From the IMG/VR virus record IMGVR_UViG_3300001202_000057, positions 1 to 64,000 of that record: a stretch of DNA of 64,000 nt; one strand, given 5' to 3'. The stretch is from a virus. Position numbers and translations under genes: made by a program. Positions 1-18,877 of this stretch are shown piece after piece; positions within the stretch are counted from its first letter, which is position 1; every line of letters starts with the position of its first letter. A model generated the notes under the pieces. It was given only the letters and a program-made list of their open reading frames with translations, was not told where the DNA came from and searched no databases.

Positions 1-28
1 TAAAAGAATTAAAAAAAGAACCAATACA

Positions 29-1038
29 ATGGCTCAAAAGAGAAAACTCGTAGGTGTAGTTGCTGCACCAATAAACAATAAAAGTCAAACCGGATTAAAT
101 TCAGCTTATATTGAATTTTTAAAGATAATGTTTAATACAGATGTTGTCATAATAGATGCTACTTCTGAGAAATTTTTTGAAGATTTAGATTTATTACTAC
201 TTCCTGGTGGAGCTGACGTAGATACATCTAGATATAATAGAAAACCTAGTAGACATACTCAAAGACCAAATATTTATTATGAATGGTTTGATACTAATAT
301 GTTAGGAAAGTATATTGATGCTAATATACCAATTTTTGGTATTTGTAGAGGATTTCAAACTTTATCTGTATATTTTGGATGTACATTGTCTCAACATATC
401 TCTCAAGCATATTCTGAAAACAGATATGAATTAGTAGATACTCAAATTTTAAATGTTGAAGCTATGAAGGAAGCAGGCTTTTCTATTAGAAGTTATATTA
501 AAATTAAAGGTAATTCAAAATTGAAAGCTATCAAAACTAATTCTATGCATCATCAAGGATTACGTGATGAAAATATTCCTCAAGATAGTTCTGTAATACC
601 TTTAGCTTATAATCATAGTAAAAATAATATAGAAGCTATGACTATTGAGGGTAAACCAATTATTGCCGTACAATGGCACCCTAAATCTTTGGGGCTCTAA
701 CTGGTGACAGTTAGATAAACTTTGCGTGAATTGTCTGGAAACCCATCTAAAAAGGGTAATCAGCAGCCAAGCTTACTTAGGAATGAGTTTGAAGGTTCAG
801 AGACTAGGAAACGACACCAGAACGGTGAGTAATTTTCCCACGAGCGCGCAATAACTATTAAAAATAAATAGTTAAAGATATAGTCCAATCCTATAAAATG
901 ATAAATTATAGGCCTAAGAGGTAAACTCTTTTAGAAATAAGTTCATCCCTCTTGGAAGAAATTTGGGATGAATTCTCAATCAACGCAATTGAATCATTAT
1001 TAGCTTACAAAGAATCTAAAATAGAAGAAATAGTATGA
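29..1038 (+). CDS. Class-I glutamine amidotransferase / peptidase C26 (gamma-glutamyl hydrolase-like), split gene: exon 1 29..682, exon 2 955..1038
   Basis: ORF 29..700 shows LLLPGGADVD, the nucleophile elbow GICRGFQ, NSMHHQG and AVQWHP, then reads into the intron (KSLGL*). Joining U682 to G955 gives QWHP|EEIWDEF..., restoring the catalytic His-Pro-Glu. The paralog at 18221..18877 has this uninterrupted as IQAHPE. The exon 2 frame ends at TGA 1036..1038, overlapping the next ATG (ATGA). Confidence 0.8.
683..954 (+). ncRNA. Group I self-splicing intron, no internal ORF (about 272 nt)
   Basis: The classical conserved elements occur in order: P-like aattgtctggaaac (729..742), Q-like aatcagcagcc (758..768), R gttcagagacta (795..806) and S aagatatagtcc (875..886). 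R and S can pair gacta/tagtc (P7). The internal guide 5'-tctttgggg-3' (686..694) pairs continuously with the ligated exons ccct|gaaga, with a U682-G691 wobble at the 5' splice site. G954 is the terminal G. P9-type hairpins lie at 890..896/906..912 and 916..920/926..930. Confidence 0.8.
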
Positions 1039-1880
1039 GTAAAATAGTAAATCCAACATTTGGATCAGACCCAGAATTTATAGCAATTAATATTGATACA
1101 CAACAACCAATTAGTTGTGTAGGTAAAATAGGTGGAACTAAACATGAACCATTATCTATTGGTGAAGGTTGTTCACGTCAAGAAGATAATGTTTTAGCAG
1201 AAGTATGTATTCCACCTGTAACTAATAAAAAAGATTTTGTTAAATATATTACTTATGCTAAAAATGAAGTAAATAAATTATTAACTAAATTTAATGCTAA
1301 ACTGATTAGTGCTTCATCTATGGAATACCCTAATGAAGAATTACAATCAAAAGCAGCTAGAAAATTTGGTTGTTCTGAATCATGGTGTGCTTGGACTGGT
1401 GAGAGTGTAGACGTACCACCTGCTGAAATGGTGGGCAATTTAAGAAGTGCTGGTTTCCACATCCACATAGGATTTAAAGGAGACATTGAAGACTTTGATT
1501 TAATAGAGACTCTAATTCGTAATATGGATAAGTACTTAGGTCTACCTTCTCTAATAATAGATCGTGATACTGATAGACGTAAAATCTATGGTAAAGCTGG
1601 TGATTTCAGAAGTGAAGAATTAGCTGATGATATTATTAAAATAGAATACAGAACTCTTGGTGCTAATATGGGAGCTACTGATGAGTTAATGGAATATTGT
1701 TTTGATCAAACTTTATTGGCTATTGAAGCTACAAATAGAGGAGAATCTCCTGATCCCGTAATTGAAAAAATTATTGATAACAGTGATTCAGAATCAGCAG
1801 CTCTTCTTATTGAAGAATATGGTATTAATCTACCAGGTATTTTTGTTGAAAATGAATTAAAAGTAGAACTACATGCCTAA
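1035..1880 (+). CDS. Carboxylate-amine (COOH-NH2) ligase, GCS2/glutamine-synthetase-like fold, phage phiEco32-type
   Basis: Motifs GSDPEF, GFHIHIGF and IEYRTLG match the E-x-E / H-x-H / E-x-R pattern of GCS2-like amidoligases. The ATGA overlap with exon 2 of the upstream gene indicates translational coupling. Confidence 0.6.
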   Translation: MSKIVNPTFGSDPEFIAINIDTQQPISCVGKIGGTKHEPLSIGEGCSRQEDNVLAEVCIPPVTNKKDFVKYITYAKNEVNKLLTKFNAKLISASSMEYPNEELQSKAARKFGCSESWCAWTGESVDVPPAEMVGNLRSAGFHIHIGFKGDIEDFDLIETLIRNMDKYLGLPSLIIDRDTDRRKIYGKAGDFRSEELADDIIKIEYRTLGANMGATDELMEYCFDQTLLAIEATNRGESPDPVIEKIIDNSDSESAALLIEEYGINLPGIFVENELKVELHA

Positions 1881-2322
1881 CAATTTAGATATTATTACTT
1901 ATGGCTCTTTGAGAAAAGGAGAATACAACTTTGATAGATTTCCTGGTATGATATATAATAGTACTCAAACTATTACAGGATACAAACTGTATTCTTTAGG
2001 ATCTTATCCAGGTGTTAAACCTACTGGAGATATTAATGATGTATTAATAGTAGATCATTTAACTTGTCCAGATCAAGAAACTAAAGATTCCATTAATAGA
2101 ATGGAAAGAGGAGCCGGTTATGCTGCTGTAACTCTAGTTTTACCAAATGGTGAATCAGGAGAATTTTATCCCTATTTAGGAAATGTAGAAGAAAAAAATC
2201 TAGTGCCTCACGGTGATTGGACAAAAAGACAATTAAGCAATGAAGAGTATATTAAAGAAAAAGAAAGTATTAAAGAAGAAGAAGGTAGTGCGCAAGCCAG
2301 TACAGAAATCTCCCAAGTCTAG
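1873..2322 (+). CDS. Gamma-glutamylcyclotransferase (AIG2/GGCT-like)
   Basis: N-terminal YGSLRKGEYNF (YGSL..G signature), a size of about 150 aa and an acidic C-terminal tail. It overlaps the upstream stop by 8 nt. Confidence 0.6.
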   Translation: MPNNLDIITYGSLRKGEYNFDRFPGMIYNSTQTITGYKLYSLGSYPGVKPTGDINDVLIVDHLTCPDQETKDSINRMERGAGYAAVTLVLPNGESGEFYPYLGNVEEKNLVPHGDWTKRQLSNEEYIKEKESIKEEEGSAQASTEISQV

Positions 2323-3103
2323 AGTTATTACTCGTAAGAGATGGCCTTCTACTATATTAAGAGTACTATCAAGACACCCATCTCATAAGCCATTAAGGAA
2401 TGAGCGTATCAGAACCTCAGTACCTACAGTTTTAAGATTGGGTTCTGAAACAGATTGGAGAAGGGCAGAAATAGAAATTAATACTGTGGCTGCTGTTCAA
2501 AACTCAGCTTCTAAATCTAGAATGAAAAGATGTTTTATCCAAGCAGGAGTAATTACTCCTAAATTTTATACTAGAGCTTCTTTACAAAGACTTACCAATG
2601 CTCAAAAAGAAGAAGCATTACCTATTATTGGTAAAAGAGTATTTGGTTCTAGAGCTCAAGGTATGGTAAAATTAGATACTTTAGCACAACTTAATGAGTT
2701 TTTAGCTACTCACAACAATGGTTATTTATATGAAGAGTTTGTCAACTATTCTCGTGAATATAGATTACATGTTTCTACCAGAGGTGTATGTTTCTATTCC
2801 TGTAGAAAAATGTTGAGAAATGAGATTACAGAAAGACGTTGGTTAAGAAATGATTCTAATTCTAATTGGATTATGGAAACTACTACTGAATTATTTAACA
2901 AGCCAGTTACTTGGAATGCTATTGTTGCAGATTGTGTAAGAGCTCTCAATGCAGTAGGATTAGATGTAGGTGCTTGTGATGTCAAAGTAGCCAAAGATGG
3001 CAGACATTCTATTATTGAAATCAATTCAGCTCCAAGTTTTGGTGATATTACTCTACAAAAGTATATCACTGAAGTAAAAGAGTTAATTAAAATTAAATCA
3101 TAA
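2240..3103 (+). CDS. ATP-grasp amidoligase (RimK-like). The start is uncertain: ATG 2240 or GTG 2288.
   Basis: IGKRVFGSRAQGMVKL, YLYEEFVNYSREYRLHV and DVGACDVKVAKDGRHSIIEINSAPSFG are typical ATP-grasp central and C-terminal motifs. The first ~28 codons overlap the GGCT gene and are Lys-rich, so the true start may be internal. Confidence 0.65.
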   Translation: MKSILKKKKVLKKKKVVRKPVQKSPKSRVITRKRWPSTILRVLSRHPSHKPLRNERIRTSVPTVLRLGSETDWRRAEIEINTVAAVQNSASKSRMKRCFIQAGVITPKFYTRASLQRLTNAQKEEALPIIGKRVFGSRAQGMVKLDTLAQLNEFLATHNNGYLYEEFVNYSREYRLHVSTRGVCFYSCRKMLRNEITERRWLRNDSNSNWIMETTTELFNKPVTWNAIVADCVRALNAVGLDVGACDVKVAKDGRHSIIEINSAPSFGDITLQKYITEVKELIKIKS

Positions 3104-3104
3104 T

Positions 3105-4847
3105 ATGTGTGGTATAATTGCTTACACAGGCAAACAAAGAATAGACATTGATAAGTTAAAATTACTTATGATGTTTTCTAGAAAAAGAGGTACTGATAGT
3201 TGTGGGTTTTGGTATAATGAAAAAAGAATTATTGGATATAATAGATTTGGAAATGGTTTAGATACTTCTGATTCAGTTAACTTATTTAAACATGTTATTT
3301 TTAAAAAGAGTAAAAATAGTAGAGTTAAAAATAAAACTGTTATTGCTCATACTAGACGTAAATCTTATGGCTTAGCCAAAGCTGAAAATGCCCATCCATT
3401 TGAAATTACAGATGATAATGATAACATATTAATAATAGGTTGTCATAATGGTACTTTACATAAATCTGGAATGAAACGTTTTTTAGAAAAATGGAAATTA
3501 GATTCTGAAGAACATGATGTTGATTCATATTTTTTACTTAAAGCTTTGGCTTTAAATAGAGACAATATGGGAGGTGTATTATCTAGTTATATAGGAACTG
3601 CTGCTCTAGCATTTAGCTTTCCTGATGATCCAGGTAGTTTATATCTTTGGTCTGGTGAATCCACTATTAACCAAAATACTTCTGCTAATCACATAGAGAG
3701 ACCTTTACATTACTATCAAAATAAAACTGGTATATATTTTGCCTCAGAAGAAAATTTCCTCACAGGAACATTCAATGTAGATTTAGAGGATATACAAGAG
3801 GTCCCTAGTAATACTTTGATGTATTTTAAAAATGGAGAGTTAATTGAATCTGTAAAATATAGTAGAGATAAAGCTTCTCAAGAGTTGTATTATAGTGTAC
3901 AAACTACTAATAATAGGATTAGAACTGACTATGGTCATGGAGCTTCAACTATAAAAAAGTTGCCAGCATCTACTCAGAAGAACTCTGGAGAACGAGATTC
4001 GATGCCATATTCAAGTAGAGAGAAAGCTTATAGTAGATTTTTAATGAGGCAGAAAAAGAATGCCACAAAACAAATTTTATTATTAAGTGACATCCCCACT
4101 CCAGTTAAAATTGCTAATAATAGAATATATGAGTGGAAACTCAGATATTGGAGAAATGGACATCTTGCAGAAGGAGAGTATTTATTATCTCCAGATGGAC
4201 TTGAAATATCTCCAAAAGATTTATTAAATGATCCTACTATTAAAGCTAAACTCTATTATTTTTATAAAGGTATAATGGTCTTTGATCAAAAAAGTATTGA
4301 TATATTAAAAACAATTAATGTTTCAGGATTAAAAAACTATTCTAGTTTACGTAAAATGTTAAATCCAGAACAAATACTTTTTAAAGGTGATAGAGATGTT
4401 TCTATTTATCATTTAGAAACTAAAGAGAAAGCTACTTCATTTTTTAGTAAAATACCTTTTTCATATTATAATTATAGAATAGAAGAAGGAGAATTACTTT
4501 ATGTACATTTAAAAGTTAAACATTCTAAGACATATGAACTTAAAGGTAAAAAATTAGTTTTAAAAGAAAATAGAACTAATAGTAAAATAGGGAATAAAAT
4601 ACCTTTAGATAATTTTATGTCTAATATTAAAAGAATTACAACTCCTTCTGAAGACATAAAAGGAAGATTTGACAATCTTCTTAATGAAGAAGATCAATTT
4701 ACTAATAAGATAAAATTATATAATCATTTTTGTGAAACACAATTTAAAACTTCTAAAGACTGCGACAACCACTTTGAGTGTCATTTGGGAATACCTTATG
4801 ATTGGAGTATGTCTCCCGAAGAAAATTGGATTCCTTTTACTGAGTAA
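3105..4847 (+). CDS. Class-II (Ntn) glutamine amidotransferase domain protein with a ~300-aa C-terminal extension of unknown function
   Basis: It starts MCGIIAYTG (Cys2 nucleophile after Met removal), followed by HTRRKSYG...NAHPF and GCHNGTL, which are typical of GATase type 2. The C-terminal half has no motif I recognise. Confidence 0.7.
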   Translation: MCGIIAYTGKQRIDIDKLKLLMMFSRKRGTDSCGFWYNEKRIIGYNRFGNGLDTSDSVNLFKHVIFKKSKNSRVKNKTVIAHTRRKSYGLAKAENAHPFEITDDNDNILIIGCHNGTLHKSGMKRFLEKWKLDSEEHDVDSYFLLKALALNRDNMGGVLSSYIGTAALAFSFPDDPGSLYLWSGESTINQNTSANHIERPLHYYQNKTGIYFASEENFLTGTFNVDLEDIQEVPSNTLMYFKNGELIESVKYSRDKASQELYYSVQTTNNRIRTDYGHGASTIKKLPASTQKNSGERDSMPYSSREKAYSRFLMRQKKNATKQILLLSDIPTPVKIANNRIYEWKLRYWRNGHLAEGEYLLSPDGLEISPKDLLNDPTIKAKLYYFYKGIMVFDQKSIDILKTINVSGLKNYSSLRKMLNPEQILFKGDRDVSIYHLETKEKATSFFSKIPFSYYNYRIEEGELLYVHLKVKHSKTYELKGKKLVLKENRTNSKIGNKIPLDNFMSNIKRITTPSEDIKGRFDNLLNEEDQFTNKIKLYNHFCETQFKTSKDCDNHFECHLGIPYDWSMSPEENWIPFTE

Positions 4848-4860
4848 GACACTTGAAATT

Positions 4861-6399
4861 ATGGGATTAAATATAGTAACATTTGATGGAACTTTATCTA
4901 AAAAATCTAAATGTATAATAATTGATAATGAATATTATATATTAGGTGATGTTAAGGTTAAAAATTCTGGACAATGTTTGAGATTAACACCAGATGGAGA
5001 GCCTATAAAACTTTCTTCTGGTGAAGTAGTTTGGGATCATGAAAATAATATTTATGATTATCGTAGAAAATTAATACATGGAGTTGTTTCAGCAAATAAA
5101 ACTGAAACAGTCCTTGGTTATTTTTCTCCAAACTTACTTGAAAATGTTAGTGTAATAACTGATACTAAATTTTATACTGCTTTAAATCAAAAATGTCTTG
5201 GTAGTTCTTTTAAAGAAGATATAATATCAGGATGGTTTTCTAGAAGTGTTCCTATTTCTAATAGAGTTAATACTAAAAATATTTCTCGTATAGTTTCTGA
5301 CATTAGTATTGGAGAAAAAAGAATGCCAGCAAAACAAAATTACAGAAGTATTTTTAAAAACACTTACAATGTTGAAGATGATAAGAGAATATTTGAAGCT
5401 CTTACTAAAACTTCTTTAAAAGCATTACCTAGTATTAAAAATACATTAAGTAAATATGAAAAGAATCTTTTTGACTATTCTATTGGAATAGAATTAGAGA
5501 CTATTTTTGGGAAAATACCAATGAAATACCTATTTAAATATGGTTTAATACCTCTTAGAGATGGTAGTATCAATGGTTTTGAATACACTTCAATACCTTA
5601 TAGACATAATAAAAAACTTTCTACATTGAAAGAAATTTGTGAAATGATGTCTAAAAGAACTGGAGTTAATAAGTATTGTAGTTTTCATATTCATTTTGGC
5701 AATGTGAATAAGGATAAACTATATATAATAGCTCTGTACATGTTGTGTTACCAATTACAACATGAGCTACATGAAATAGTTCCTCCTTTTAAAAAAGATC
5801 TTGAATATTTACGTAGTAAGAAAAAAGATCATTGTAAATTCTTAAATAGTTTATCATTATTTGATAACAGTATTTTTGAAGCTACTGGAAAAGAGGATTT
5901 TAACAAAAGAGTTGCAGAAGCATATTCTACTATCTTTAGTTTTTTAAATGAGAATAATAAACCTTCTCATCAATATAATAAGACTAACCAGTCTCATGTC
6001 AAGTCTGGTCAAGATAAATGGAATTTTACTACAAGGTATTATTTTGTTAATTTTTTAAACTTGTTATTTTCAAAAAGAGGTACTATTGAATTTAGGCTTC
6101 ATCACGGAACTGTAAACAAGTATAAAATAATTTATTGGACATTAATAAATTCTTTTATTCTTAAGTTTGCAGAAAACAATATCAAAGGCATTATTAATAA
6201 AGAATTTAAAGTTAATTTATCTGATATTATTACACAAACTTGTAAAGATGAAGATCTTGGTATAGCTTTGTTAGATTATATTAGAGAAAGAAAATCTTTA
6301 TTTTTAGATGACTATATGAATGGAAATCTCGGTGATACAGCTGATTTTATCAATGATCCAATGTATGTACATAACATGGGTAGAGAATTAGGTATATGA
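4861..6399 (+). CDS. Second GCS2-like amidoligase (Amidoligase_2-type)
   Basis: IGIELETIFG, RDGSINGFEYTS, SFHIHFG and TIEFRLHHGT give the E-x-E / H-x-H / E-F-R pattern. The ORF track begins at 4732 inside the upstream gene. ATG 4861, just after the upstream stop (4847), is the likelier start. Confidence 0.6.
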   Translation: MGLNIVTFDGTLSKKSKCIIIDNEYYILGDVKVKNSGQCLRLTPDGEPIKLSSGEVVWDHENNIYDYRRKLIHGVVSANKTETVLGYFSPNLLENVSVITDTKFYTALNQKCLGSSFKEDIISGWFSRSVPISNRVNTKNISRIVSDISIGEKRMPAKQNYRSIFKNTYNVEDDKRIFEALTKTSLKALPSIKNTLSKYEKNLFDYSIGIELETIFGKIPMKYLFKYGLIPLRDGSINGFEYTSIPYRHNKKLSTLKEICEMMSKRTGVNKYCSFHIHFGNVNKDKLYIIALYMLCYQLQHELHEIVPPFKKDLEYLRSKKKDHCKFLNSLSLFDNSIFEATGKEDFNKRVAEAYSTIFSFLNENNKPSHQYNKTNQSHVKSGQDKWNFTTRYYFVNFLNLLFSKRGTIEFRLHHGTVNKYKIIYWTLINSFILKFAENNIKGIINKEFKVNLSDIITQTCKDEDLGIALLDYIRERKSLFLDDYMNGNLGDTADFINDPMYVHNMGRELGI

Positions 6400-6827
6400 C
6401 AAATAAGAAACCTAGAAGTAATATAGGTAAACGTAATAGAAATAAAGGTAACAATTTTGAAAGGCAGTTAGCTAAACTTTTAAGAGAATATGGTTACAAG
6501 TATTGTAAGACTTCTAGGCAAGCATCAAGGCTTTTAGATGATTGTAAGATTGATATTTCTGGTATTAATATGATAATACAGGCTAAGGCTGGCTATAAAA
6601 GAGCTAGACCTAAGTATGATGTCATATTCAGAGAAATTAAAAAATGTATTAAAGATAATTTTCCTCCTAATCACACTATTCACAATTTACCAATTATATT
6701 GGTACATAAAATGGATGGTAGAAAACAAGAAAATTGGACTTGGACATTTAATCATGAAGATGTAAAGGAGTTAATTCTCCCTAATCTAATAAAAACTTTG
6801 AATGAACAGAATAGAGGAGTACTTTAA
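6396..6827 (+). CDS. Small basic PD-(D/E)XK nuclease, Holliday-junction-resolvase-like
   Basis: GNNFERQLAKLLREYGY ... DDCKIDISG ... IIQAKAG resembles the E / D / (E/Q)-x-K layout of Hjc-type resolvases. The ATGA overlap with the upstream gene indicates coupling. Confidence 0.4.
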   Translation: MTNKKPRSNIGKRNRNKGNNFERQLAKLLREYGYKYCKTSRQASRLLDDCKIDISGINMIIQAKAGYKRARPKYDVIFREIKKCIKDNFPPNHTIHNLPIILVHKMDGRKQENWTWTFNHEDVKELILPNLIKTLNEQNRGVL

Positions 6828-7836
6828 AACTGACGCTTACTCCCAATCTCAGCTTAAAGCTAAAGGAGGGAGTGAGCCTAGAATTAATAGTAAAAAAAAA
6901 GATGCAGAAGTGATGTATTATGAAGAGAAAAGACATTTTGTCAAAGGCTCTTTAGTAGATACTATACTGACTGCTCCTGAATTGTTAGATTCACTGTATC
7001 ATATTATAGAGGATGTAACATTATCAGAAAAACAAGTCTCTATTATTAAATATATTTGGGATAAGTGTGAGGATAAGTCTACGGACTTATCTGAACTCCC
7101 AGATTTAATAATAGAAGCTTATGAATTTCATAAGTACCAAGCCAGACAACTGAGGGACACTAAAATTAAAAAGTGTACTGAGGAATGTTCTGACTACTGG
7201 AATCAACTTAGAGAGGCTGGGGAAAGACAAATTATTCCTAAATCCTATTATGAAGTTGCTAAGGTTGCTGCTAATTCCCTCATGAGTGGGGAATATACTA
7301 AGCAGTACTTTCAGACCACTGGTGCTGAAGAAATTAAATTTCAATTAGCTGTGTACTTTGAGTACATGGGTAAGAATTGTAAAGCTCTTATGGATATGGT
7401 TAGATTTGACCATGTTAAAAGAACTATACAACTTATAGACATAAAAACTACTGGTGATTATCTTTCTAAATTTTCTATTTCTGTCAAGAAATTTAGATAT
7501 GATATTCAACTAGCATTTTATAACTTAGCTTTGAAAACTAAGTTTCCAGAATACACAATATTACAGCCTATATTATTAGCTGTAAGTTTTAAAGAACCTG
7601 AATTTGCTGAACCTTTTGAAATATCTTCTGAAGATCTACTTATTGGATCAGAAGGGTCTAAATATAAAACAGTAGAAACTAGTGATCTTAATACAGCACA
7701 CTACTATTTTAAAAGAGATAATTCTATTGATGGGTATGAACAACTATTAGAAAGAGTTATTAGAAGGGAAAAGCAAGAAGAATTTTACAATGAAGAATTA
7801 ATGTTTTCAGGAGTTAACAAATTAAAACTTTGGTAA
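6802..7836 (+). CDS. RecB-family PD-(D/E)XK exonuclease
   Basis: GSLVDTILT, LIDIKTTGD (D-x-K) and YDIQLAFYNLAL (Q-x-x-x-Y) are RecB/Cas4-type nuclease motifs. No Cys cluster is present. Confidence 0.55.
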   Translation: MNRIEEYFKTDAYSQSQLKAKGGSEPRINSKKKDAEVMYYEEKRHFVKGSLVDTILTAPELLDSLYHIIEDVTLSEKQVSIIKYIWDKCEDKSTDLSELPDLIIEAYEFHKYQARQLRDTKIKKCTEECSDYWNQLREAGERQIIPKSYYEVAKVAANSLMSGEYTKQYFQTTGAEEIKFQLAVYFEYMGKNCKALMDMVRFDHVKRTIQLIDIKTTGDYLSKFSISVKKFRYDIQLAFYNLALKTKFPEYTILQPILLAVSFKEPEFAEPFEISSEDLLIGSEGSKYKTVETSDLNTAHYYFKRDNSIDGYEQLLERVIRREKQEEFYNEELMFSGVNKLKLW

Positions 7837-8510
7837 AAACAAGAGAAGGACTTACTATCACTCCTGGTAAAAGATATGATAATAAAACAGCTAGATACTT
7901 AGCTCCATGTCTCAAAGATTGGGGACAAGAATTAGAATCTAATACATTTTCTAATTATATTTTAGCTGTGGGTATAGGTGATAGTGAGTATAGTGAAGAA
8001 ATACCTGATAGAATATTTTTACTATTTGATGTTAATGGAAAACGTAGGTATAATAAATACCCACAAAAAAGTAATGCCAATTTTAAATTTGGTGAATATT
8101 TAGAATTTATAAAATATCATCCGGCTTATGTAGATGATTATGTATATGACAATATGCAAGATGGTAACCAGCATATGGTTATATTAACTCTACCTCAACA
8201 TTTTAAAGATTCTGAATTATTTGATAAATTTTTACAAGGTAGATATTCTGAAATGTATACATCTGAAGAGATGGAAAGATTATTTAGTAGAGTTCTATTG
8301 AAAGATAGAGTTAAAATAGATAATCCTCAATACTTAATAATCAACAAAGATCCAAACTACGAAGAAACATTTAGAGAAAAATTAATGGAGGATTTTGATA
8401 TTAATAGACCTACATATGACATATCTGATAGAGAATGGGATTATAAACCATTTTTATCAGAAGAAGTATTTAACTATGAGCAAAAAAACAAAATCAGCCT
8501 TACGCTATAA
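7830..8510 (+). CDS. Hypothetical protein (TTG start inferred)
   Basis: A 226-codon ORF in the co-directional gene array with no recognisable motif. The only start near the upstream stop is TTG 7830. Confidence 0.45.
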   Translation: MVKTREGLTITPGKRYDNKTARYLAPCLKDWGQELESNTFSNYILAVGIGDSEYSEEIPDRIFLLFDVNGKRRYNKYPQKSNANFKFGEYLEFIKYHPAYVDDYVYDNMQDGNQHMVILTLPQHFKDSELFDKFLQGRYSEMYTSEEMERLFSRVLLKDRVKIDNPQYLIINKDPNYEETFREKLMEDFDINRPTYDISDREWDYKPFLSEEVFNYEQKNKISLTL

Positions 8511-8850
8511 TATTGGTAAGGAAGACTTTAACTTAATTGATTATAAATCTCTAATACCTTTAATAAAGGTTATGGAGTTTGGGGAAAATAAATATTCCAG
8601 AAATAATTGGAAGCAAGGTGGTTTTAGTAAGGAGAGTATTTTAAACTCACTTTTAAGACACACAGCTAAACTATCTGATGCTGTTAGTAATAACACTTCA
8701 GAATTTGATGAAGAGTCATTTGTTCATCATATTGGTAGTATAATGGCAAATGCCATGTTTTATAGCCACTATTTTGTTGATACCCCCATTGACCCAGACG
8801 TCAATTGGGAAGAACATTTAAATAACATTCAAAAAAAATTTAAACAATGA
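8476..8850 (+). CDS. All-alpha NTP pyrophosphohydrolase-like protein (resembles the dATP/dGTP diphosphohydrolase N-terminal domain family)
   Basis: LIDYKSLIPLIKVMEFGENKYSRNNWKQGG...LNSLLRHTAKL...EESFVHHIGSIMANAMF follows the family pattern LIP..AL...V..FG..KY...NW..G....L.A.LRH......ESG..HL....N..F. ATG 8476 was chosen over the upstream-extended ORF-track start at 8395. Confidence 0.45.
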   Translation: MSKKTKSALRYNIGKEDFNLIDYKSLIPLIKVMEFGENKYSRNNWKQGGFSKESILNSLLRHTAKLSDAVSNNTSEFDEESFVHHIGSIMANAMFYSHYFVDTPIDPDVNWEEHLNNIQKKFKQ

Positions 8851-9641
8851 TAAATTATTACATCTCAGATGGAGGATTTTTCAACACTAATTGGAAACAT
8901 GCGAGATTTTGTGCTACAGGCCCAGTAAACAATACTAGCCTTAAGTTCAAACGAACTTTATCTTTTACAACAAAAGAAAAAACTTTTGTAAAAGAAATAT
9001 GTGCTGCATTTGGTGCTACTTGTAGATTTGCTTGGTTTAGTGAGCAATTTTCTGTGAAGCATAGTCCTACTAGTACTAGATTTACTATTAAGGTATTGAA
9101 TAATATCTTACGTAATATGACTGAGAAAAATATTGATTTATATAATAGGTTTATTAATTCTAGTCAGTATCAATATTTAGATTTACTGGTAGCAGGAGTT
9201 CAAGAAAATCCTACTTACAGAGACTGTTGGTTCTCTGGCAAGGATGTAGATGATTACCCAATCTCTCCATTAACTTACAGAGTATTAAAAGATAGAAATA
9301 AAATGTACCCTGATGTGACTATGAGTTTTTCAGTTCTAGAGCTTATAAAGCTTTTAAATGATGAAAATCTTAATAACTTAAATTCATTTATCCATAGATT
9401 TACTGTTGTAGACTATGAGCGTTCAACTTTATATAGGTACAATACACAAATCTGTGAGAAGATCATTAATTTAGTTTTGGATCAATACCCACCAGTAATT
9501 AAGCCAAAGCCAACTAAAAAAGTTATAAAAACTGCTAAACCCAAAGCTGCAAAGAAGGGGACTACAGCAAAGAGAGCAACTAAGAAGCGTAAAACTACAA
9601 AGAAGACAACTACCAAAACTACTGCGGCTGAAAAAGCCTAA
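8847..9641 (+). CDS. Hypothetical protein with a histone-H1-like Lys/Ala/Thr/Pro-rich C-terminal tail
   Basis: 264-aa ORF. The last ~47 aa read KPKPTKKVIKTAKPKAAKKGTTAKRATKKRKTTKKTTTKTTAAEKA. Confidence 0.5.
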   Translation: MINYYISDGGFFNTNWKHARFCATGPVNNTSLKFKRTLSFTTKEKTFVKEICAAFGATCRFAWFSEQFSVKHSPTSTRFTIKVLNNILRNMTEKNIDLYNRFINSSQYQYLDLLVAGVQENPTYRDCWFSGKDVDDYPISPLTYRVLKDRNKMYPDVTMSFSVLELIKLLNDENLNNLNSFIHRFTVVDYERSTLYRYNTQICEKIINLVLDQYPPVIKPKPTKKVIKTAKPKAAKKGTTAKRATKKRKTTKKTTTKTTAAEKA

Positions 9642-9647
9642 TGATAG

Positions 9648-10622
9648 TTGAACATTTTTAAAAAACGTGAAAACATATTACCATATGAATATCCTCAGCT
9701 TCTTAAATATAAAGATGCTATAAGACATAGTTATTGGCTACATACTGAATTTAACTTAACTAATGATATCTCAGACTTTAAGACAAAGTTAACAGATTCT
9801 CAGAGGGAAGCAGTTAAAAGAGCTATGCTAGCTATTTCACAAATAGAAGTGAATGTAAAAGCATTTTGGGGAGATTTATATAAAAGAATGCCAAAGTTAG
9901 AAATACAAGCTACTGGTGCAACATTTAGTGATAGTGAGGTGCGTCATTTTGACGCATACTCATTTATCCTAGAAAAACTAGGTCTACAGAAAGAGTTCCT
10001 AGACATCTTAGAAGTCCCTGCTATAGTAGACAGAGTGAAGTACTTAAAGAAGTATCTCTCTGGAGCTCGTAGTAAGGATGATAAAATGTTCACTAAATCA
10101 GTTTTGTTATTTAGCTTATTTATAGAACATGTTAGCTTATTCAGTCAATTTTTGATTATTATGTCAGTAAATAAAGAGTTAAATCTTTTGTCTGGATTAG
10201 ATAACATTGTTAAGGCAACGTCTATAGAAGAAAATATACATGGACAATTTGGTACTGAGTTAATCAATATCATAAAAAAAGAAAACCCAAAATGGTTTGA
10301 TGAAGAATTTGAACAATTAATTAGATCAGCAGTAAATAAAGCTTATAAGGCAGAGAATAAACTATTAGAATGGATATTTGAACAAGGAGAATTTACTTTC
10401 TTACCAATTGAAGTAATCCAAGAATTTATTAAAAATAGATTCAATAATAGTTTAGAAAGTATTGGATACAAACCTGAGTTTGAAATCCAAGAAAAGTTGA
10501 TATCTCCTACATTATGGTTTGATATAATGTTAACGAGTAAGACAGAGGGAGATATATTTTATAAGCGGTCTACTAATTACTCCAAGAAGACCAAATCAGT
10601 TACTGCTAATGACTTATTCTAA
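9648..10622 (+). CDS. nrdB: Ribonucleotide reductase class I beta subunit
   Basis: YPQLLKYKDAIRHSYWLHTEF, the SDSEVRHFDAYSF and EENIHGQFG iron-ligand motifs, and C-terminal NDLF. A TTG start is inferred because three stops lie immediately upstream. Confidence 0.9.
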   Translation: MNIFKKRENILPYEYPQLLKYKDAIRHSYWLHTEFNLTNDISDFKTKLTDSQREAVKRAMLAISQIEVNVKAFWGDLYKRMPKLEIQATGATFSDSEVRHFDAYSFILEKLGLQKEFLDILEVPAIVDRVKYLKKYLSGARSKDDKMFTKSVLLFSLFIEHVSLFSQFLIIMSVNKELNLLSGLDNIVKATSIEENIHGQFGTELINIIKKENPKWFDEEFEQLIRSAVNKAYKAENKLLEWIFEQGEFTFLPIEVIQEFIKNRFNNSLESIGYKPEFEIQEKLISPTLWFDIMLTSKTEGDIFYKRSTNYSKKTKSVTANDLF

Positions 10623-12237
10623 ATACTATTGGTTAAATGACAAAAGTAGAAAATTCTTATCAAGAGGTTATTTGAAAGAGGGAGAAACAGGAGAATCTAG
10701 AATTATGGATATGGCTAAATATGCTGAAAGTATATTAGGTATTCAAGGTTTTGCTGAAGAATTTGAAGATTATGCCTCTAGAGGATTTTATTCTTTTGCT
10801 ACACCAGTATGGGTTAATTTTGGTAGATTAAAAGGACTAGGTATTAGTTGTTATGGTTCTTATTGTGAAGACAGCCTTGATTCCATCCTAAACATGGGTA
10901 GGGAGCTTGGTATGATGTCTAAATATGGCGGGGGTACATCAGCATACCTTGGAAATATACGTCCAAGAGGGACAGCTATATCAACAGGAGGCGAGGCAGA
11001 TGGACCCACTCATTATGCACATATTTATGATACCATTATAGATAAATGTAAACAAGCTGAGGCTCGTCGTGGTGCTTGTGCAATTTATCTAGATATTGAA
11101 CATCCAGATATACTTGAATTTTTAAAAGTTGGAACAGAGGGTAATGATATTCAAAATCTTCAAAATGGAGTCTGTGTTGGAGACTTATTTATGAAGAAAA
11201 TGATTGCAGGAGATCAGCACAGCAGAGATGTTTGGGCTGCAGTACTCAATTCTAGAATATCAGTAGGATACCCTTATTTATTTTTTAAGGATAATGTGAA
11301 TAACAATACTCCTTATAAAGGTAAATCCAAAATAGTAGCATCTAATTTATGCTCTGAAATTTGTTTGCCCTCTAAGATTGATGAATCCTTTGTATGTTGT
11401 TTAGGTAGTATAAACCTAAAACACTGGGATGAGATTAAAGAGACTAGAGCTATTGAGCTTTATGTATTATTTTTAAATGCAGTTATGGAAGACTTCATCC
11501 AAAAAGCGTCTAAGCTACCAGGAATGGGTAGAGCTGTCAGATTTGCTAAAAATCACAGAGCTCTTGGATTGGGTGTATTGGGCTACCATACATATTTGCA
11601 GGAGAACTTAATTGAGTTTGAGTCTCTCGCTGCCAAACAATTCAATCATGACGTGTTTAGTACTCTACAACAAAGGAGTTACGCTGCATCTGAGAAGGCC
11701 CTACGGTTAGGATTTTCCAATGCACACGTAGCTACCAGAGCTAACACAGTCTTAAATGCTATTGCACCTACAAAATCTTCAAGTTTTATATTAGGACAAA
11801 TGTCATTAGGCATAGAACCAATTTTGTCAAATTGTTTTACTAAAGACATTGCTAAAATACAAACTACGTATAGAAATCCTGTATTACTTAAACACCTCCA
11901 AAAACATAATATGGATAATCCCGAAATATGGAAGGACATTGCTAATAATAATGGTTCAATACAACATTTGGATATTCCAAATAAGGAAGTGTTTAAAAGC
12001 TTTATAGAAATATCTCCTGCAGAGATAATCTTACAAGCATCTCAAAGACAGAAATTTCTAGACCAATCCCAATCCCTTAATCTGAGTATACATGATTCTG
12101 TGTCTATAAAGGATATTAATAGATTGTATATAACAGCATGGGAAAAAGGAGTAAAAACATTATACTACCAGATAGGTGAATCAGCAGCCATGAATTTCTC
12201 TAGGGAGATAAATGAATGCGTAGCCTGTGAAGGATAA
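10609..12237 (+). CDS. nrdA: Ribonucleotide reductase class I alpha subunit (short form, no ATP-cone)
   Basis: The active-site motif SNLCSEI, plus CCLGSINL, ALGLGVLGYH, IAPTKSSS and the C-terminal redox pair CVACEG. It overlaps nrdB by 14 nt. Confidence 0.9.
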   Translation: MTYSKYYWLNDKSRKFLSRGYLKEGETGESRIMDMAKYAESILGIQGFAEEFEDYASRGFYSFATPVWVNFGRLKGLGISCYGSYCEDSLDSILNMGRELGMMSKYGGGTSAYLGNIRPRGTAISTGGEADGPTHYAHIYDTIIDKCKQAEARRGACAIYLDIEHPDILEFLKVGTEGNDIQNLQNGVCVGDLFMKKMIAGDQHSRDVWAAVLNSRISVGYPYLFFKDNVNNNTPYKGKSKIVASNLCSEICLPSKIDESFVCCLGSINLKHWDEIKETRAIELYVLFLNAVMEDFIQKASKLPGMGRAVRFAKNHRALGLGVLGYHTYLQENLIEFESLAAKQFNHDVFSTLQQRSYAASEKALRLGFSNAHVATRANTVLNAIAPTKSSSFILGQMSLGIEPILSNCFTKDIAKIQTTYRNPVLLKHLQKHNMDNPEIWKDIANNNGSIQHLDIPNKEVFKSFIEISPAEIILQASQRQKFLDQSQSLNLSIHDSVSIKDINRLYITAWEKGVKTLYYQIGESAAMNFSREINECVACEG

Positions 12238-12347
12238 TATATTTTTCTAACAACATTAAAATTTTAAATCTATGTTTGCAAGAATGTGGAGACGTAGCAA
12301 CAAAGTGAAAGCTTTGATTGCTCCACGTCATTACTAATGATGTATTT

Positions 12348-12384
12348 AATGGGGGACTTGTTCCCCCATTATTTTATTTATTTT
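12348..12384 (+). terminator. Rho-independent terminator after nrdA
   Basis: Stem aatggggg (12348..12355) pairs with cccccatt (12363..12370) across a 7-nt loop, followed by attttatttatttt. Confidence 0.7.
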
Positions 12385-12433
12385 AATGTGAATAATAATA
12401 GGTGATTATCCAGATTATTTGTATATTCATAAT

Positions 12434-13114
12434 ATGAAAAGAAATTATTATTTTTACGTATTAAAAGACCCAAAAACTTTTGAAATAAGATATTTTGGAA
12501 AAACAATTAATTTAAATAAAAGATTAAAAGATCATATTTATGAATCAAAGAATTGTAATACACACAAATGTAATTGGATTAAATCTATAAATTTTAACCC
12601 AATTATTCAATGTGTATTTTTTCAAGAATGTACTATTAAAGAAAGTTCTAAAATAGAAAAAACTATTCTTAGAAAATTAATGAAAAAATTTAATCTTACT
12701 AATTCTTGGGATAACTGTATAGGAGCATTTAAAACAGGCAAGCTTGTACATCAATATGATTTAAAAGGTAATTTTATAAAAACTTTTGAAAATGCTACAC
12801 ATGCAGAATCTGAAACTGATGTTTATAACTCTAATATTCTTAGATCTTGTAAAAAATCTGGACCAAAAGGTATGGTTTCAGCAGGAAATTATTTATGGCT
12901 ATTTAAAAAGTATAAAAAATATCCTTATCCACTAAAAAGAAATAATGGAGAAAAACCAATTATACAATATGATTTAAATGGCAATTACATAAAAGAATTT
13001 ATTTCAGCCAGAGAAGCTTCTAAAAAATTAAATATTAATTATAAATTAATCTCTCGTGTTTGTAGAGGTAAAAGAAATAAAACTTGTGGATACAAATTTA
13101 AATTTAAAACCTAA
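12434..13114 (+). CDS. Free-standing GIY-YIG homing endonuclease with two NUMOD/IENR-like DNA-binding repeats
   Basis: YYFYVLKDPKTFEIRYFGKT (GIY...YIG), then KRLKDH and a conserved Glu in IEKTILRKL. Repeats VHQYDLKGNFIKTFENATHAE and IIQYDLNGNYIKEFISAREASKKLNINYKLISRVCRGKR are present. The ORF track starts at TTG 12419, but ATG 12434 is likelier. Confidence 0.8.
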   Translation: MKRNYYFYVLKDPKTFEIRYFGKTINLNKRLKDHIYESKNCNTHKCNWIKSINFNPIIQCVFFQECTIKESSKIEKTILRKLMKKFNLTNSWDNCIGAFKTGKLVHQYDLKGNFIKTFENATHAESETDVYNSNILRSCKKSGPKGMVSAGNYLWLFKKYKKYPYPLKRNNGEKPIIQYDLNGNYIKEFISAREASKKLNINYKLISRVCRGKRNKTCGYKFKFKT

Positions 13115-13907
13115 AAGAACTTTAGTACTTGGAGATCAGCATGGTGCTTATAAGGCAGTACAACAAGTTTTAGGAGCATCAGGATTTAATTTAGAAACTG
13201 ACTTAATTATAAATCTTGGAGACGTTGTTGACGGATGGCCTCATTCTGCTGAATTAGTTCAATTTTGGATTGATTTAGAAAAAAAGTGTAGTTTTAAACC
13301 TATATTTTTAAGGGGGAATCACGATGACTGGGCTTGGGAGTGGATTCAAACAGGAATTAAAAAGGACATGTGGATTAATCAAGGAGGTCAATCAACTTAT
13401 GATTCATATCAAAAATGTAGACATTTTGATTTTGATGCTCATTATAACTTTTTTAAGTATTTACATCACTACTACATAGATGATCAAAATAGATTATTTC
13501 TACATGCTGGTTTTACTTCTCATAGAGGAGTTAAAGATGAAATACATAAACCTAATTTTTGGTGGGATAGAACTTTATGGGAATCTGCTGTAGCTGCTAA
13601 AAGAGTTAAAGATCCATTACATATTCCAAAAAGATTTAAAAACTATAAAGAAATTTATATAGGTCACACAACTACAGTTAATTGGGATTATAAGAAAAAT
13701 TGGGATGAAAATGGAAAATTAGGAACTAAAATAGTAACTCCTATGAATTCTCATAATGTATGGAATTTAGATACAGGTTGTGGATTTGCAGGTAAACTTA
13801 CTATAATGGATATTAATAGTAAAGAATATTGGCAATCAGATTTTGTTAATACACTTTATCCTAATGTTAAAGGTAGGGGTAAATTTAAAAGAAACTGGAA
13901 AAAATAA
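13056..13907 (+). CDS. PPP-family metallophosphoesterase (lambda-phosphatase / ApaH-like). The start is uncertain (GTG 13086 is possible).
   Basis: LGDQHGA (GDxHG), LGDVVDGW (GDxVDxG), LRGNHDDW (GNHD/E), LHAGF and IGHT. The 5' end of the ORF-track model overlaps the endonuclease gene by 59 nt. Confidence 0.75.
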   Translation: MFVEVKEIKLVDTNLNLKPKRTLVLGDQHGAYKAVQQVLGASGFNLETDLIINLGDVVDGWPHSAELVQFWIDLEKKCSFKPIFLRGNHDDWAWEWIQTGIKKDMWINQGGQSTYDSYQKCRHFDFDAHYNFFKYLHHYYIDDQNRLFLHAGFTSHRGVKDEIHKPNFWWDRTLWESAVAAKRVKDPLHIPKRFKNYKEIYIGHTTTVNWDYKKNWDENGKLGTKIVTPMNSHNVWNLDTGCGFAGKLTIMDINSKEYWQSDFVNTLYPNVKGRGKFKRNWKK

Positions 13908-13911
13908 TAAT

Positions 13912-14406
13912 ATGAGTGGACAAATAAGATTTATTTCAGATCCACACTTTGGACATAGAAATATAGCTATACATAGAGGATTCAAAGATGAATTTGAAAT
14001 GAATGAGCATATTATAGCTCAATGGAATAAAGTAGTTAAGAAGAAAGATACAACTTGGATACTAGGAGATATAACTATGGAAAAAGGTGAATATCACTAT
14101 TTAGATAGATTGAATGGCTTCAAAAGAATTATTTTAGGAAATCATGACAAAGGTAATCATACTAAAGTTATGTTAGATTATGTTAATTCTATACATGGAT
14201 TAAGTAAATTTAGATCTAAAGAATTTGGTAATATTTGGTTATCACATTGTCCTATATTTCCTAAAGAATTAGAGTTCCGAGTTAACTATAATATTCATGG
14301 TCACATACATACTGGTTATGTAATAAATGACCCTAGATATATAAATGTGTGTATGGAAGTTCAAGATTATACACCAAAAACTTTACAAGAACTTATTAAA
14401 AAATAG
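13912..14406 (+). CDS. Calcineurin-like metallophosphoesterase (small, YfcE/MJ0936-like)
   Basis: ISDPHFGH, ILGDIT, LGNHD, LSHCP and HGHIH. ATG 13912 follows the upstream stop, whereas the ORF-track start at 13843 lies inside the previous gene. Confidence 0.7.
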   Translation: MSGQIRFISDPHFGHRNIAIHRGFKDEFEMNEHIIAQWNKVVKKKDTTWILGDITMEKGEYHYLDRLNGFKRIILGNHDKGNHTKVMLDYVNSIHGLSKFRSKEFGNIWLSHCPIFPKELEFRVNYNIHGHIHTGYVINDPRYINVCMEVQDYTPKTLQELIKK

Positions 14407-14408
14407 TT

Positions 14409-14627
14409 ATGATATTTGATATAGGATTTCAATATAAATCAGAAGAAAGAGTAATGGGTGCTAGCATCGTAGTAGAGTGTGAAAGTGAAGGAATTGCTAA
14501 AAAATACTTAGTAAAACAAATGCTTTCTAGAATGCCTGATTGGATTAAACGTCAGGTAGATGTTAATTTTGAATCTACAGGGCCTTATAAAGTATATTGT
14601 GAAGAAATTAAAACAATTAAAATTTAA
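14409..14627 (+). CDS. Hypothetical small protein
   Basis: A 72-codon ORF filling the gap exactly between neighbouring genes. It has no motif. Confidence 0.4.
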   Translation: MIFDIGFQYKSEERVMGASIVVECESEGIAKKYLVKQMLSRMPDWIKRQVDVNFESTGPYKVYCEEIKTIKI

Positions 14628-14629
14628 TT

Positions 14630-15451: not shown

Positions 15452-15452
15452 T

Positions 15453-17096: not shown

Positions 17097-17110
17097 ATAA
17101 TTATAACACA

Positions 17111-17683
17111 ATGCTAATAACTCCTGAAATATTAAAAGAGATTCACAGTTATATTTCTTTAGTTCTAAATAGAACAGAAGATATTAATAATATTAAATCT
17201 CTTAGAATAACTGAAAGACAGCCTCTTACAGAGAGGTTGTATTTTCAACTACCATCAGACCCTACTCTTAGAGTTTGTTTACATGTATTTCACCCTGCTG
17301 ATGCAGATGATTGTTTTCCACATCCACATGCTTGGGAAGCAGAAGTAATATTACTTAATGGTTTTTATAAACATTGGATAAAAAGTAATGTACCTTTTGA
17401 TTTTAATGCTAAAGTACTTTTTGGTAAGGGTCTTGCTAGTACTATATTAGCTCCTGGATCAACATATCATATGGATACTCCATTTATGTGGCATAAAGTA
17501 CAACCATTAACTGTATGTCATACACTAATGGTTAATAAGCCTACATGGAGACCAAAAAGTCAACATTGTAAATTTACAAAGGGTGAAGAGGTAGTAGAAA
17601 TGTCTGTTTCTAAAAAACTAATTAGATTAAGACAATTTAAAATATTTTTAGAAAATTTTGAAACAATTCCAACTTTAATTTAA
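17111..17683 (+). CDS. Hypothetical protein, possibly cupin-like metal-binding fold
   Basis: FPHPHAWEAEVILLNG loosely fits cupin motif 1 (HxH...E......G), and a later PGSTYHMD could be motif 2. This is weak. Confidence 0.35.
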   Translation: MLITPEILKEIHSYISLVLNRTEDINNIKSLRITERQPLTERLYFQLPSDPTLRVCLHVFHPADADDCFPHPHAWEAEVILLNGFYKHWIKSNVPFDFNAKVLFGKGLASTILAPGSTYHMDTPFMWHKVQPLTVCHTLMVNKPTWRPKSQHCKFTKGEEVVEMSVSKKLIRLRQFKIFLENFETIPTLI

Positions 17684-17696
17684 AACAATTAATATA

Positions 17697-18224
17697 ATGA
17701 AATTTATAGATTATAAAGAAATAATAAAAAAGACAGCTAAATTTCCCACTTCACTAAACAGTAGATCTTACTGCTTAATGGGGTTATTTGGTGAATTTGT
17801 AGAATTTTTAGAAAAAAGAATTGATCCTTCATCTTCTAGAAAAGATCTTAAAAAAGAATTAGGTGATGTTTTTTGGTATCTTACAGCATTGTGTTCAGTG
17901 TTGGGTAGTGATGTTATGGAAATTATTCCTACTGCAGAACTCTCTAAAAGCAGTTTCACAGCTTCTAAGAATAGATTTATTATAAATTATGGTAAATTAT
18001 CAGAAGTAATTAAAAAGGTTTATAGAGACAACAATAGTATTAATAAGGAGATAAATGATGTCTTTCTTAGAAGTATGATGTTATCTCTATATAATCTAAG
18101 CACTTTATCTGGATTTACTGTAGAAGAAGTCTTAGAGACTAATTATAATAAATTAATTAAAAGACGTGAAACTAATACTTTATTAGGTAGTGGTGATAAC
18201 CGTGAAGAAATAATTGTAGTATGA
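17697..18224 (+). CDS. mazG: MazG-family nucleoside triphosphate pyrophosphohydrolase
   Basis: GLFGEFVEFLEK, KELGDVFWYLTALC and NYNKLIKRRETNTLLGSGDNR give the E..E...E..D core plus the C-terminal N..KL..R...G.GD.R. Confidence 0.8.
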   Translation: MKFIDYKEIIKKTAKFPTSLNSRSYCLMGLFGEFVEFLEKRIDPSSSRKDLKKELGDVFWYLTALCSVLGSDVMEIIPTAELSKSSFTASKNRFIINYGKLSEVIKKVYRDNNSINKEINDVFLRSMMLSLYNLSTLSGFTVEEVLETNYNKLIKRRETNTLLGSGDNREEIIVV

Positions 18225-18877
18225 TAAAAGTATTTGTACCCGGTCTTAGAAGTGGTAGTACTAGTTTCTCTAGTTGGATAGATGATGGAATACCAGTAGC
18301 AACTTTGGAAGAAGCAGATTTAATGGTTTTACGTGGAGGACAAGATATTAATCCTGTTATCTATGGAGATCATAGTTTACATCCTCAAACTCAAGAACCT
18401 AATAGAACTAGAGATTTTAGTGAATTAGTATATTGTATTAGAGCTGAAAGAATGGGTATTCCAATAATTGGAATATGTCGAGGAGCACAAATGTTAAGTG
18501 GTTTTTCTGGTAATAGATTAGTACAACATGTAAATAATCATACTGGAGAAGGACATGATATGTATACCATAGATGGTAAAAAATTTGTTATTAATTCACT
18601 ACACCATCAAATGCAATGGCCTATTAGAAAAGATGCTGAAGTATTAGCATGGGCTGATAGATCTACTGTTAGAGAAGATGAAAATGGAGAGCAAGTATTA
18701 GATAGAGATATAGAAGTAGTTTACTATGGAAATATTAATTCTTTAGGAATACAAGCCCATCCAGAATTTGAGACTAATGGACCAGTCTTAACATGGTATA
18801 ATGATATAATCAGAGAATATTTATTCTCTAAAAAAAATAAATTTGAAAAAGAAATTGAAAATAGCATTAGATGTTGA
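18221..18877 (+). CDS. Class-I glutamine amidotransferase / peptidase C26 (intron-less paralog of 29..1038)
   Basis: LRGGQDINP, GICRGAQML, NSLHHQM and GIQAHPEFE give an intact Cys-His-Glu triad. Confidence 0.8.
   Translation: MIKVFVPGLRSGSTSFSSWIDDGIPVATLEEADLMVLRGGQDINPVIYGDHSLHPQTQEPNRTRDFSELVYCIRAERMGIPIIGICRGAQMLSGFSGNRLVQHVNNHTGEGHDMYTIDGKKFVINSLHHQMQWPIRKDAEVLAWADRSTVREDENGEQVLDRDIEVVYYGNINSLGIQAHPEFETNGPVLTWYNDIIREYLFSKKNKFEKEIENSIRC

Follow-up and report, generated by a model that had tools for sequence, protein, structure and literature searches.

What interrupts a phage amidotransferase gene within its catalytic motif? The question is raised by the beginning of a 64,000-nucleotide (nt) stretch of viral DNA (positions 1 to 64,000 of IMG/VR virus record IMGVR_UViG_3300001202_000057; hereafter, the window), where an open reading frame (ORF) at 29..700 encodes a Peptidase_C26/class I glutamine amidotransferase (GATase) protein ending ...AVQWHPKSLGL*, and the next long ORF begins at 1035. 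Between these two ORFs (701-1034) there is nothing longer than 42 amino acids (aa) on either strand. A sequence-only reading of this DNA had proposed that a group I intron without an ORF splits the gene exactly at His-Pro|Glu. It gave the end of the upstream ORF (...QWHPKSLGL*) correctly, whereas the gap that it put at 335 nt is in fact 334 nt. Based on our analyses, we consider it very likely that positions 683..954 are an ORF-less group I intron of subgroup IA, 272 nt in length, within a phage gene whose product is a PuuD/SpuA-like gamma-glutamyl hydrolase. The parts of the split gene, all on the + strand, are the following.

29..682 (+): exon 1 of the Peptidase_C26/class I GATase gene, residues 1-218, ending ...VQWHP and including the catalytic Cys106 and His217
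679..694 (+): P1 hairpin, 679-684 (CCCU|AA) pairing with 689-694 (UUGGGG), the U682•G691 wobble marking the 5' splice site
683..954 (+): ORF-less group I intron, 272 nt, very likely of subgroup IA, from the RF00028 match, stops in three frames and junction enumeration
698..700 (+): in-frame TAA, following the first five codons of the intron, at the P1/P2 boundary, in continuation of the exon 1 frame
954 (+): terminal (omega) G of the intron, from the sequence and junction enumeration
955..1038 (+): exon 2, encoding EEIWDEFSINAIESLLAYKESKIEEIV* from the catalytic Glu219, with GAAGA at 955-959 forming P10 with 686-690

When the entire 64 kb was searched with the Rfam 15 covariance models, a check suggested with the original proposal, the result was strongly positive. 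RF00028 (Intron_gpI) matched 672-906 on the + strand over model positions 1-253 of 253, with 91.5 bits where the gathering score is 50 (E 3.7e-22). This was the sole Rfam hit, and no second intron was found in the window by either Rfam or the custom covariance model described below. The interval also differs from its surroundings in base composition, as had been noted: the G+C content of 683-954 is 36.8% (0.37), versus 29% in exon 1 and 27% in exon 2 (0.29 and 0.27), with a 150-nt peak of 44% at 676-825.

The splice sites can be read closely from the sequence. Exon 1 finishes on a codon boundary (CAC CCT, His-Pro), such that the intron lies between the Pro218 and Glu219 codons of the catalytic His-Pro-Glu motif. 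The internal guide sequence, 5'-UCUUUGGGG-3' at 686-694, pairs both with CCCU at 679-682 to form P1 and with GAAGA at 955-959 to form P10, the latter being 5 base pairs (bp) with UCUUU at 686-690, one of them G•U. The proposed pairing of the guide with both exon ends, U682•G691 included, was thus seen directly, and G954, proposed as the terminal G, precedes the in-frame GAA at 955. The automatic RF00028 alignment shifts the splice-site U•G by one base from the actual wobble, U682•G691. When every pair with an exon 1 end at 660-700 and an exon 2 start at 900-999 was enumerated, QWHPEEIWDEF was restored by 681/954 and 682/955 only, and of these two only 682/955 obeys the rule that U precedes the 5' site and G the 3' site. 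Among 26 in-frame U...G combinations near the site, the conserved motif was restored only by 682|955, and the others were rejected as junctions. The enumeration therefore agreed with the sequence-only reading that a single junction restoring His-Pro-Glu obeys this rule. The exon 2 stop codon (TGA, 1036-1038) overlaps the ATG (1035-1037) of a COOH-NH2 ligase gene as ATGA, and both the spliced translation and this coupling to the next gene are as had been described.

The folding of the interval is that of a group I core. An unconstrained minimum-free-energy fold of 670-965 recovered P1, P2, P3, P4, P5, P6, P7.1/P7.2, P8 and P9, and a second fold run yielded the same core. The coordinates given earlier for the four classical elements (P 729-742, Q 758-768, R 795-806, S 875-886) were right. 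The P element represents J3/4 plus the P4 5' strand and the Q element J5/4 plus the P4 3' strand, while R (GUUCAGAGACUA) and S (AAGAUAUAGUCC) both align to invariant stretches of RF00028. P4 has 7 bp with U734 bulged, which resolves the P/Q pairing that could not be convincingly folded by hand in the sequence-only reading. The elements of the fold are listed here.

696..715 (+): P2 hairpin, 696-703 with 708-715, loop GUGA
722..728 (+): P3 5' strand, pairing with 845-851 (RF00028, fold, covariation)
731..766 (+): P4-P5 domain, holding the P and Q elements; P4 is 731-733 plus 735-738 with 760-766, P5 is 741-744 with 754-757 (RF00028, fold, covariation)
768..791 (+): P6 hairpin, 768-775 with 784-791 (fold, covariation)
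795..806 (+): R element GUUCAGAGACUA, including the P7 5' strand, 802-806 with 881-885
807..838 (+): P7.1/P7.2 insertion between P7 and P3', 807-812 with 829-838 and 815-818 with 824-827
845..851 (+): P3 3' strand (RF00028, fold, covariation)
852..874 (+): P8 hairpin, 852-859 with 867-874 (RF00028, fold, covariation)
875..886 (+): S element AAGAUAUAGUCC, J8/7 plus the P7 3' strand at 881-885 (RF00028 alignment)
890..912 (+): P9 hairpin, 890-896 with 906-912 (folds)
913..953 (+): 3' peripheral region, P9.1-like; ambiguous between a local hairpin of 914-921 with 927-934 and pairing of 915-921 over a longer range to 948-954

P7 does not appear in the nested fold because it crosses P3; 802-806 and 881-885 form five of five standard pairs. 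By analogy to known group I introns, we take G802-C885 and A803-U884 to be the guanosine-binding pairs of P7. A candidate P9.0, read by hand, would pair A887-A888 with U952-U953.

Subgroup IA introns carry P7.1/P7.2 helices (PMC3984707). Relative to RF00028, the window intron has a 36-nt insertion (807-842) between the P7 5' strand and the P3 3' strand, which folds as two stacked helices. As the interval between those two strands is the exact location of P7.1/P7.2 in subgroup IA, we placed the intron in that subgroup. The finer label of IA2-like was chosen because the nearest isolated-phage matches are Bacillus-phage DNA polymerase introns; we presume IA2 over IA1 or IA3 from this similarity and from general knowledge of the subgroups, rather than from a subgroup-specific model.

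Joining 29..682 to 955..1038 gives a protein of 245 aa that matches Peptidase_C26 (E 1.3e-29) to the last profile position and the class I GATase family (2.7e-13). Its VQWHPE aligns with that of Lin1909 (PDB 3fij) and SpuA (7d4r), and the counterpart of His217 in SpuA is H221, the residue mutated in the SpuA H221N structures. AlphaFold2, run on the homolog alignment, gave a model with a predicted local distance difference test (pLDDT) score of 85 and a predicted template modeling (pTM) score of 0.87. The ten-residue blocks across the junction (201-230) had pLDDT values of 94, 90 and 87, exon 2 forms the C-terminal helices, and the top Foldseek matches of the model were SpuA (H221N structures), PuuD and Lin1909. 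The catalytic triad of the host gene is Cys-His-Glu, located in GxCxG and HPE; in an alignment of 22 homologs C106, H217 and P218 are invariant and E219 is nearly so. Since Glu219 is the first codon of exon 2, a complete active site is encoded by the spliced mRNA only. The junction consensus of the 22 homologs is VQWHPEEIxDxFSxxxIxxLL, to which the spliced ...VQWHP|EEIWDEFS...LL fits gap-free. This alignment to C26 peptidases, also a check suggested beforehand, showed no insertion or deletion at the junction, and the claimed splice sites, lack of an ORF and restored catalytic His-Pro-Glu motif are upheld.

A search of 5.8 billion proteins returned 1065 matches, the only near-identical one being P0001, which is the truncated call from the same contig (Logan SRR2835678_1497, 116,892 bp). 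The next best match was 49% identical. The sample accession, SRR2835678, was found in no searchable paper. The window itself has a second Peptidase_C26 gene, at 18221..18877 (+), that the sequence-only reading had offered as a natural comparison. This paralog is indeed uninterrupted, but it is a weak comparator, as it is 27% identical to the spliced protein and its target site matches at 18 of 42 nt, with A rather than U as the last base on the 5' side.

Related RNAs provide a further line of evidence. At least 120 IMG/VR contigs contain the core pattern GGTTCAGAGACTA-N(55-85)-AAGATATAGTCC, and there was no close copy among the matches listed. The best relative among them, L173, is 75% identical over 165 nt and adjoins, just upstream, the capsid domain of an HK97-type capsid gene. 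A custom covariance model made from the window core alone (720-888, 44 pairs) had 127 matches in the window and 99 IMG/VR loci, exactly one of them in the window. With P7 added, 91.0% of 4906 cells held standard pairs, compared with 22.9-40.1% when the partners were slid by 1-3 columns. Compensatory changes on both sides were present in 46 of 49 pairs, and none of 500 shuffles reached any of the observed measures. The P7.1/P7.2 helices were 85-95% paired across the relatives, with many pair types and many compensatory changes. P7 was nearly invariant in 119 relatives, partly because the loci had been chosen by their R/S pattern. Near-identical sequences were sought with megablast of window positions 1-3200 against 50,697 phage records, which gave no match, and with the exon 21-mer ATTGCCGTACAATGGCACCCT, which had no exact match in IMG/VR or JGI metagenomes. 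As no near-identical copy or intron-less allele was found, insertion polymorphism is not demonstrable.

Together, these data indicate that the intron is real and probably competent to splice. Several points weigh against this conclusion. Competence is deduced from the sequence. The covariation alignment was fitted to the model and therefore flatters the structure, although the margin over the slid controls is still large. This intron lineage was found in a single copy, such that its own conservation is not assessable, and the intron 21-mer GGAAACGACACCAGAACGGTG had no exact match in JGI metagenomes. The fold of 913-953 is ambiguous, one alternative sequestering G954, and the intron as a whole has a fold z-score of only -2.33.

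A rival possibility is that the intron has decayed and can no longer splice, in which case the C26 gene would be a pseudogene or would encode a 223-aa protein without the triad Glu, the paralog at 18221..18877 covering its function. The lack of an endonuclease gene, the single copy, the second C26 gene and the uncertain 3' peripheral fold would all fit such a relic. We nonetheless regard decay as improbable, for all core helices pair, J8/7, P7 and the invariant R/S stretches are intact, and the RF00028 match is well above the gathering score. In addition, exon 2 is in frame, fits EEIWDEFS..LL and ends in the ATGA overlap, which would be unexpected of 84 untranslated nt, and the paralog proposed to take over is only 27% identical.

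Less probable still is an arrangement in which a short GATase and a 28-aa ORF from TTG 952 would be independent genes on either side of a structured non-coding RNA that is not removed. The ORF at 952..1038 does have a possible TTG start, and the public call for the C26 gene ends at 700. Against this, the RNA between them corresponds to a full-length group I ribozyme, and its guide pairs with exactly these exon ends. Among the 120 best homologs the only one to stop after His-Pro was P0001, the self hit; the 119 others (which include P0070, a 184-aa protein from a 1.2-kb contig that shows no His-Pro motif) provided no such case, and the median tail of 20 aa after the motif matches exon 2. The sequence-only reading had held that homologs naturally ending at QWHP would speak against the intron, and with none among the 119 non-self homologs this objection falls away. 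Finally, the contig comes from a single sample (SRR2835678), but an assembly artefact joining foreign sequence into it has a negligible chance of being correct because a chimera would not produce a base-precise insertion with the frame restored and a guide complementary to both exons.

If the group I intron splices as its family membership suggests, the transcribed RNA would fold into the P1-P9 core, and an external guanosine bound in P7 would attack the phosphate after U682, held in P1 by U682•G691. The freed 3' OH of exon 1 would then attack after G954, with exon 2 aligned by P10 (955-959 with 686-690) and probably by P9.0, and the ligated mRNA would encode the full enzyme of 245 aa. On unspliced RNA, ribosomes would be expected to halt at the TAA at 698-700, giving a 223-aa product without the triad Glu and the C-terminal helix. 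Early in-frame stops are typical of such introns, an arrangement that helps the ribozyme to fold during coupled transcription-translation (PMC3984707), and the TAA at the P1/P2 boundary matches it. Likewise, in many of the relatives the exon 1 frame ends 11-21 nt before P3.

No homing endonuclease ORF was found in the intron, which has stops in all three frames, in agreement with its description as ORF-less; the longest ORFs inside it (36-42 aa) span the P3-P8 core. Nor was there a free-standing endonuclease gene among the adjacent neighbors, which are upstream a primase-like protein and two unknown proteins, and downstream the COOH-NH2 ligase, a GGACT-type cyclotransferase, an ATP-grasp protein, a class II GATase and an Amidoligase_2 protein. 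With no endonuclease gene of its own, the intron would either be immobile now or rely on an endonuclease in trans. The only endonuclease gene found is a free-standing GIY-YIG plus NUMOD1 (I-TevI/Seg-like) gene at 12419-13114 (+). It sits 181 nt downstream of the ribonucleotide reductase large-subunit gene (10609-12237) and resembles the free-standing endonucleases near nrd genes of T4-like phages. We rejected it as a homing partner, since at 11.5 kb from the intron it is too distant to be plausible; it more likely serves its own spread.

A more speculative matter is whether splicing gates expression of the amidoligase cassette, rather than the intron being a neutral passenger. As the exon 2 stop overlaps the COOH-NH2 ligase ATG (1035-1038), translational coupling to the cassette could occur on spliced mRNA only, and ribosomes on unspliced RNA would stop at 698-700, 334 nt upstream of the cassette start. 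The genes after the COOH-NH2 ligase also overlap or abut. We consider such a gate unlikely, but if it existed, splicing that depends on guanosine and folding would set both hydrolase activity (through Glu219) and the linked peptide-ligase output.

How unusual is this location? The sequence-only reading had judged a C26-type amidotransferase to be an unusual host, and this was partly borne out. None of 80 IMG/VR loci with C26 homologs had the R/S core motif, and 20 of these were also without an Rfam hit. Two over-long matches (L041 and L042), considered as split C26 genes, were tandem C26 paralogs instead. The Leptolyngbya phage Lbo-JY46 has an uninterrupted C26 homolog in a similar cassette, and one locus, L008, has the identical 12-nt target and no intron. 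The insertion point falls where the gene is best conserved at the nucleotide level, at GTNCAATGGCAYCCN|GAAGA, a stretch in which many positions reach 2.0 bits over 77 homolog loci; insertions of the homing type are expected at conserved stretches (PMC3984707). In the literature, no paper was found pairing a group I intron with peptidase C26, and papers linking group I introns and glutamine amidotransferases in phage report no intron in that gene. The C26 gamma-glutamyl hydrolase gene is thus a host not previously reported for such an intron.

To place this host among others, Pfam was searched with the upstream exons of the 127 related introns, and 84 relatives were surveyed. Peptidase_C26 was the host in the window only. 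The hosts identified by Pfam in the relatives were the following.

Photosystem II D1 (psbA): 16 of the 84 surveyed relatives
Major capsid proteins: 13 members
Hsp70: 3 members
UvrD helicase: 2 members
Family A DNA polymerase: 2 members
AmoC: 1 member
Portal protein: 1 member
Tail protein: 1 member

Phage group I introns are described as favoring conserved protein-coding genes, such as those of polymerases, ribonucleotide reductases and terminases (PMC3984707; PMC12350094). Since relatives of the window intron occupy many genes outside nucleotide metabolism (psbA, capsid, Hsp70, portal and amoC among them), its host is not unusual in kind; what stands of the earlier judgement is that the host gene is new, given the 80 loci without the motif and the lack of a paper. 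Two observations were made in passing among the relatives. In L168, a core of the same family at 743-892 (+) follows an ORF matching AmoC (E 2.6e-111) and looks like an intron in a virus-borne amoC. In several viral contigs, namely L113 (at 3140-4919), L089, L165, L157, L140, L160 and L166, three to five related cores lie within 1-2 kb, the capsid or psbA genes of these loci appearing to have been invaded by multiple introns.

The C26 intron and the survey of 127 introns together show that the textbook preference for nucleotide metabolism genes reflects cultured phages more than a rule, and the window provides another instance of an intron placed exactly where the codons of its host gene are catalytic and best conserved. 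No new mechanism is opened by this finding, and its conceptual interest is modest. Its practical value is a corrected gene call: gene callers truncate the enzyme at ...HPKSLGL, losing the catalytic Glu and the C-terminal helix, and once the intron is recognized, the enzyme is complete again, in a phage amidoligase/gamma-glutamyl cassette that has been little studied.

That cassette, at 29-6399 and 18221-18877 on the + strand, is unusually rich in amide-bond functions. Beside the two Peptidase_C26 paralogs it comprises the COOH-NH2 ligase, the GGACT cyclotransferase, an R2K-type ATP-grasp protein, the class II GATase (3105-4847) and the Amidoligase_2 protein (4732-6399), the ORFs of the last two overlapping by 116 nt if translation of the latter truly begins at GTG 4732. 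Genes of nucleotide and NAD metabolism form a block at 8395-8850, 9648-12237 and 14630-18224 (+), with a dATP/dGTP diphosphohydrolase-like protein, both ribonucleotide reductase subunits, a phosphoribosyltransferase-domain protein, a MazG-like protein and a nicotinamide phosphoribosyltransferase (15453-17096). The coding strand is + over 1-19406, then - over 19503-63510. On the - strand are three giant ORFs, 24118-37608 (4496 aa), 54090-60116 (2008 aa) and 19503-24116 (1537 aa); the first two had no Pfam hit and the third had no PHROG hit. A virion structural protein of 1385 aa encoded nearby (41252-45409) is 26-29% identical to proteins of the Flavobacterium psychrophilum phages FpV4/Fpv1 and of Leptolyngbya phage Lbo-JY46. 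No transfer RNA or transfer-messenger RNA genes were found by ARAGORN in the whole window.

Comparison with known systems begins with the RF00028 family, to which the window intron conforms in its full-length match above the gathering score. It departs from the family model in the 36-nt P7.1/P7.2 insertion and in having P6, P8 and P9 shorter or shifted, which is normal subgroup variation. The td, nrdB and nrdD (sunY) introns of phage T4 splice by guanosine initiation. These IA2 introns resemble the window intron in having an IA core with P7.1/P7.2 and in residing at conserved, critical codons of phage protein genes (PMC3984707). They differ in that their hosts are nucleotide-metabolism genes, they carry endonuclease ORFs, intact or defunct, and they are ~0.6-1 kb in length, whereas the window intron is 272 nt, has no ORF and resides in a C26 gamma-glutamyl hydrolase gene.

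The closest matches from isolated phages are the polymerase introns of Bacillus phages of the SPO1/Bastille type (Belinda, Hakuna) and of Flavobacterium phage Fpv1, with 74-76% identity over the P3-P7 core (74-75% over ~125 nt for the Bacillus phages). Unlike the window intron, they split DNA polymerase genes and usually have an endonuclease ORF, and the identity is confined to the conserved core. In Fpv1 the core (L203 2501-2588; KU599877.1 79726-79813) is unannotated. It lies between coding sequences labeled "DNA polymerase" and "putative DNA polymerase", which are separated by an ORF called "hypothetical protein"; the polymerase gene is probably split here, the ORF being associated with the intron.

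The psbA intron of cyanophage S-PM2 is like the window intron in being small and ORF-less and in interrupting an auxiliary metabolic phage gene rather than a replication gene. Its mobility is provided in trans by the free-standing F-CphI, an example of collaborative homing (PMC6083498). S-PM2 differs from the window in having F-CphI, the window intron being without a flanking endonuclease gene. Given the psbA example, introns in auxiliary genes are already a known kind.

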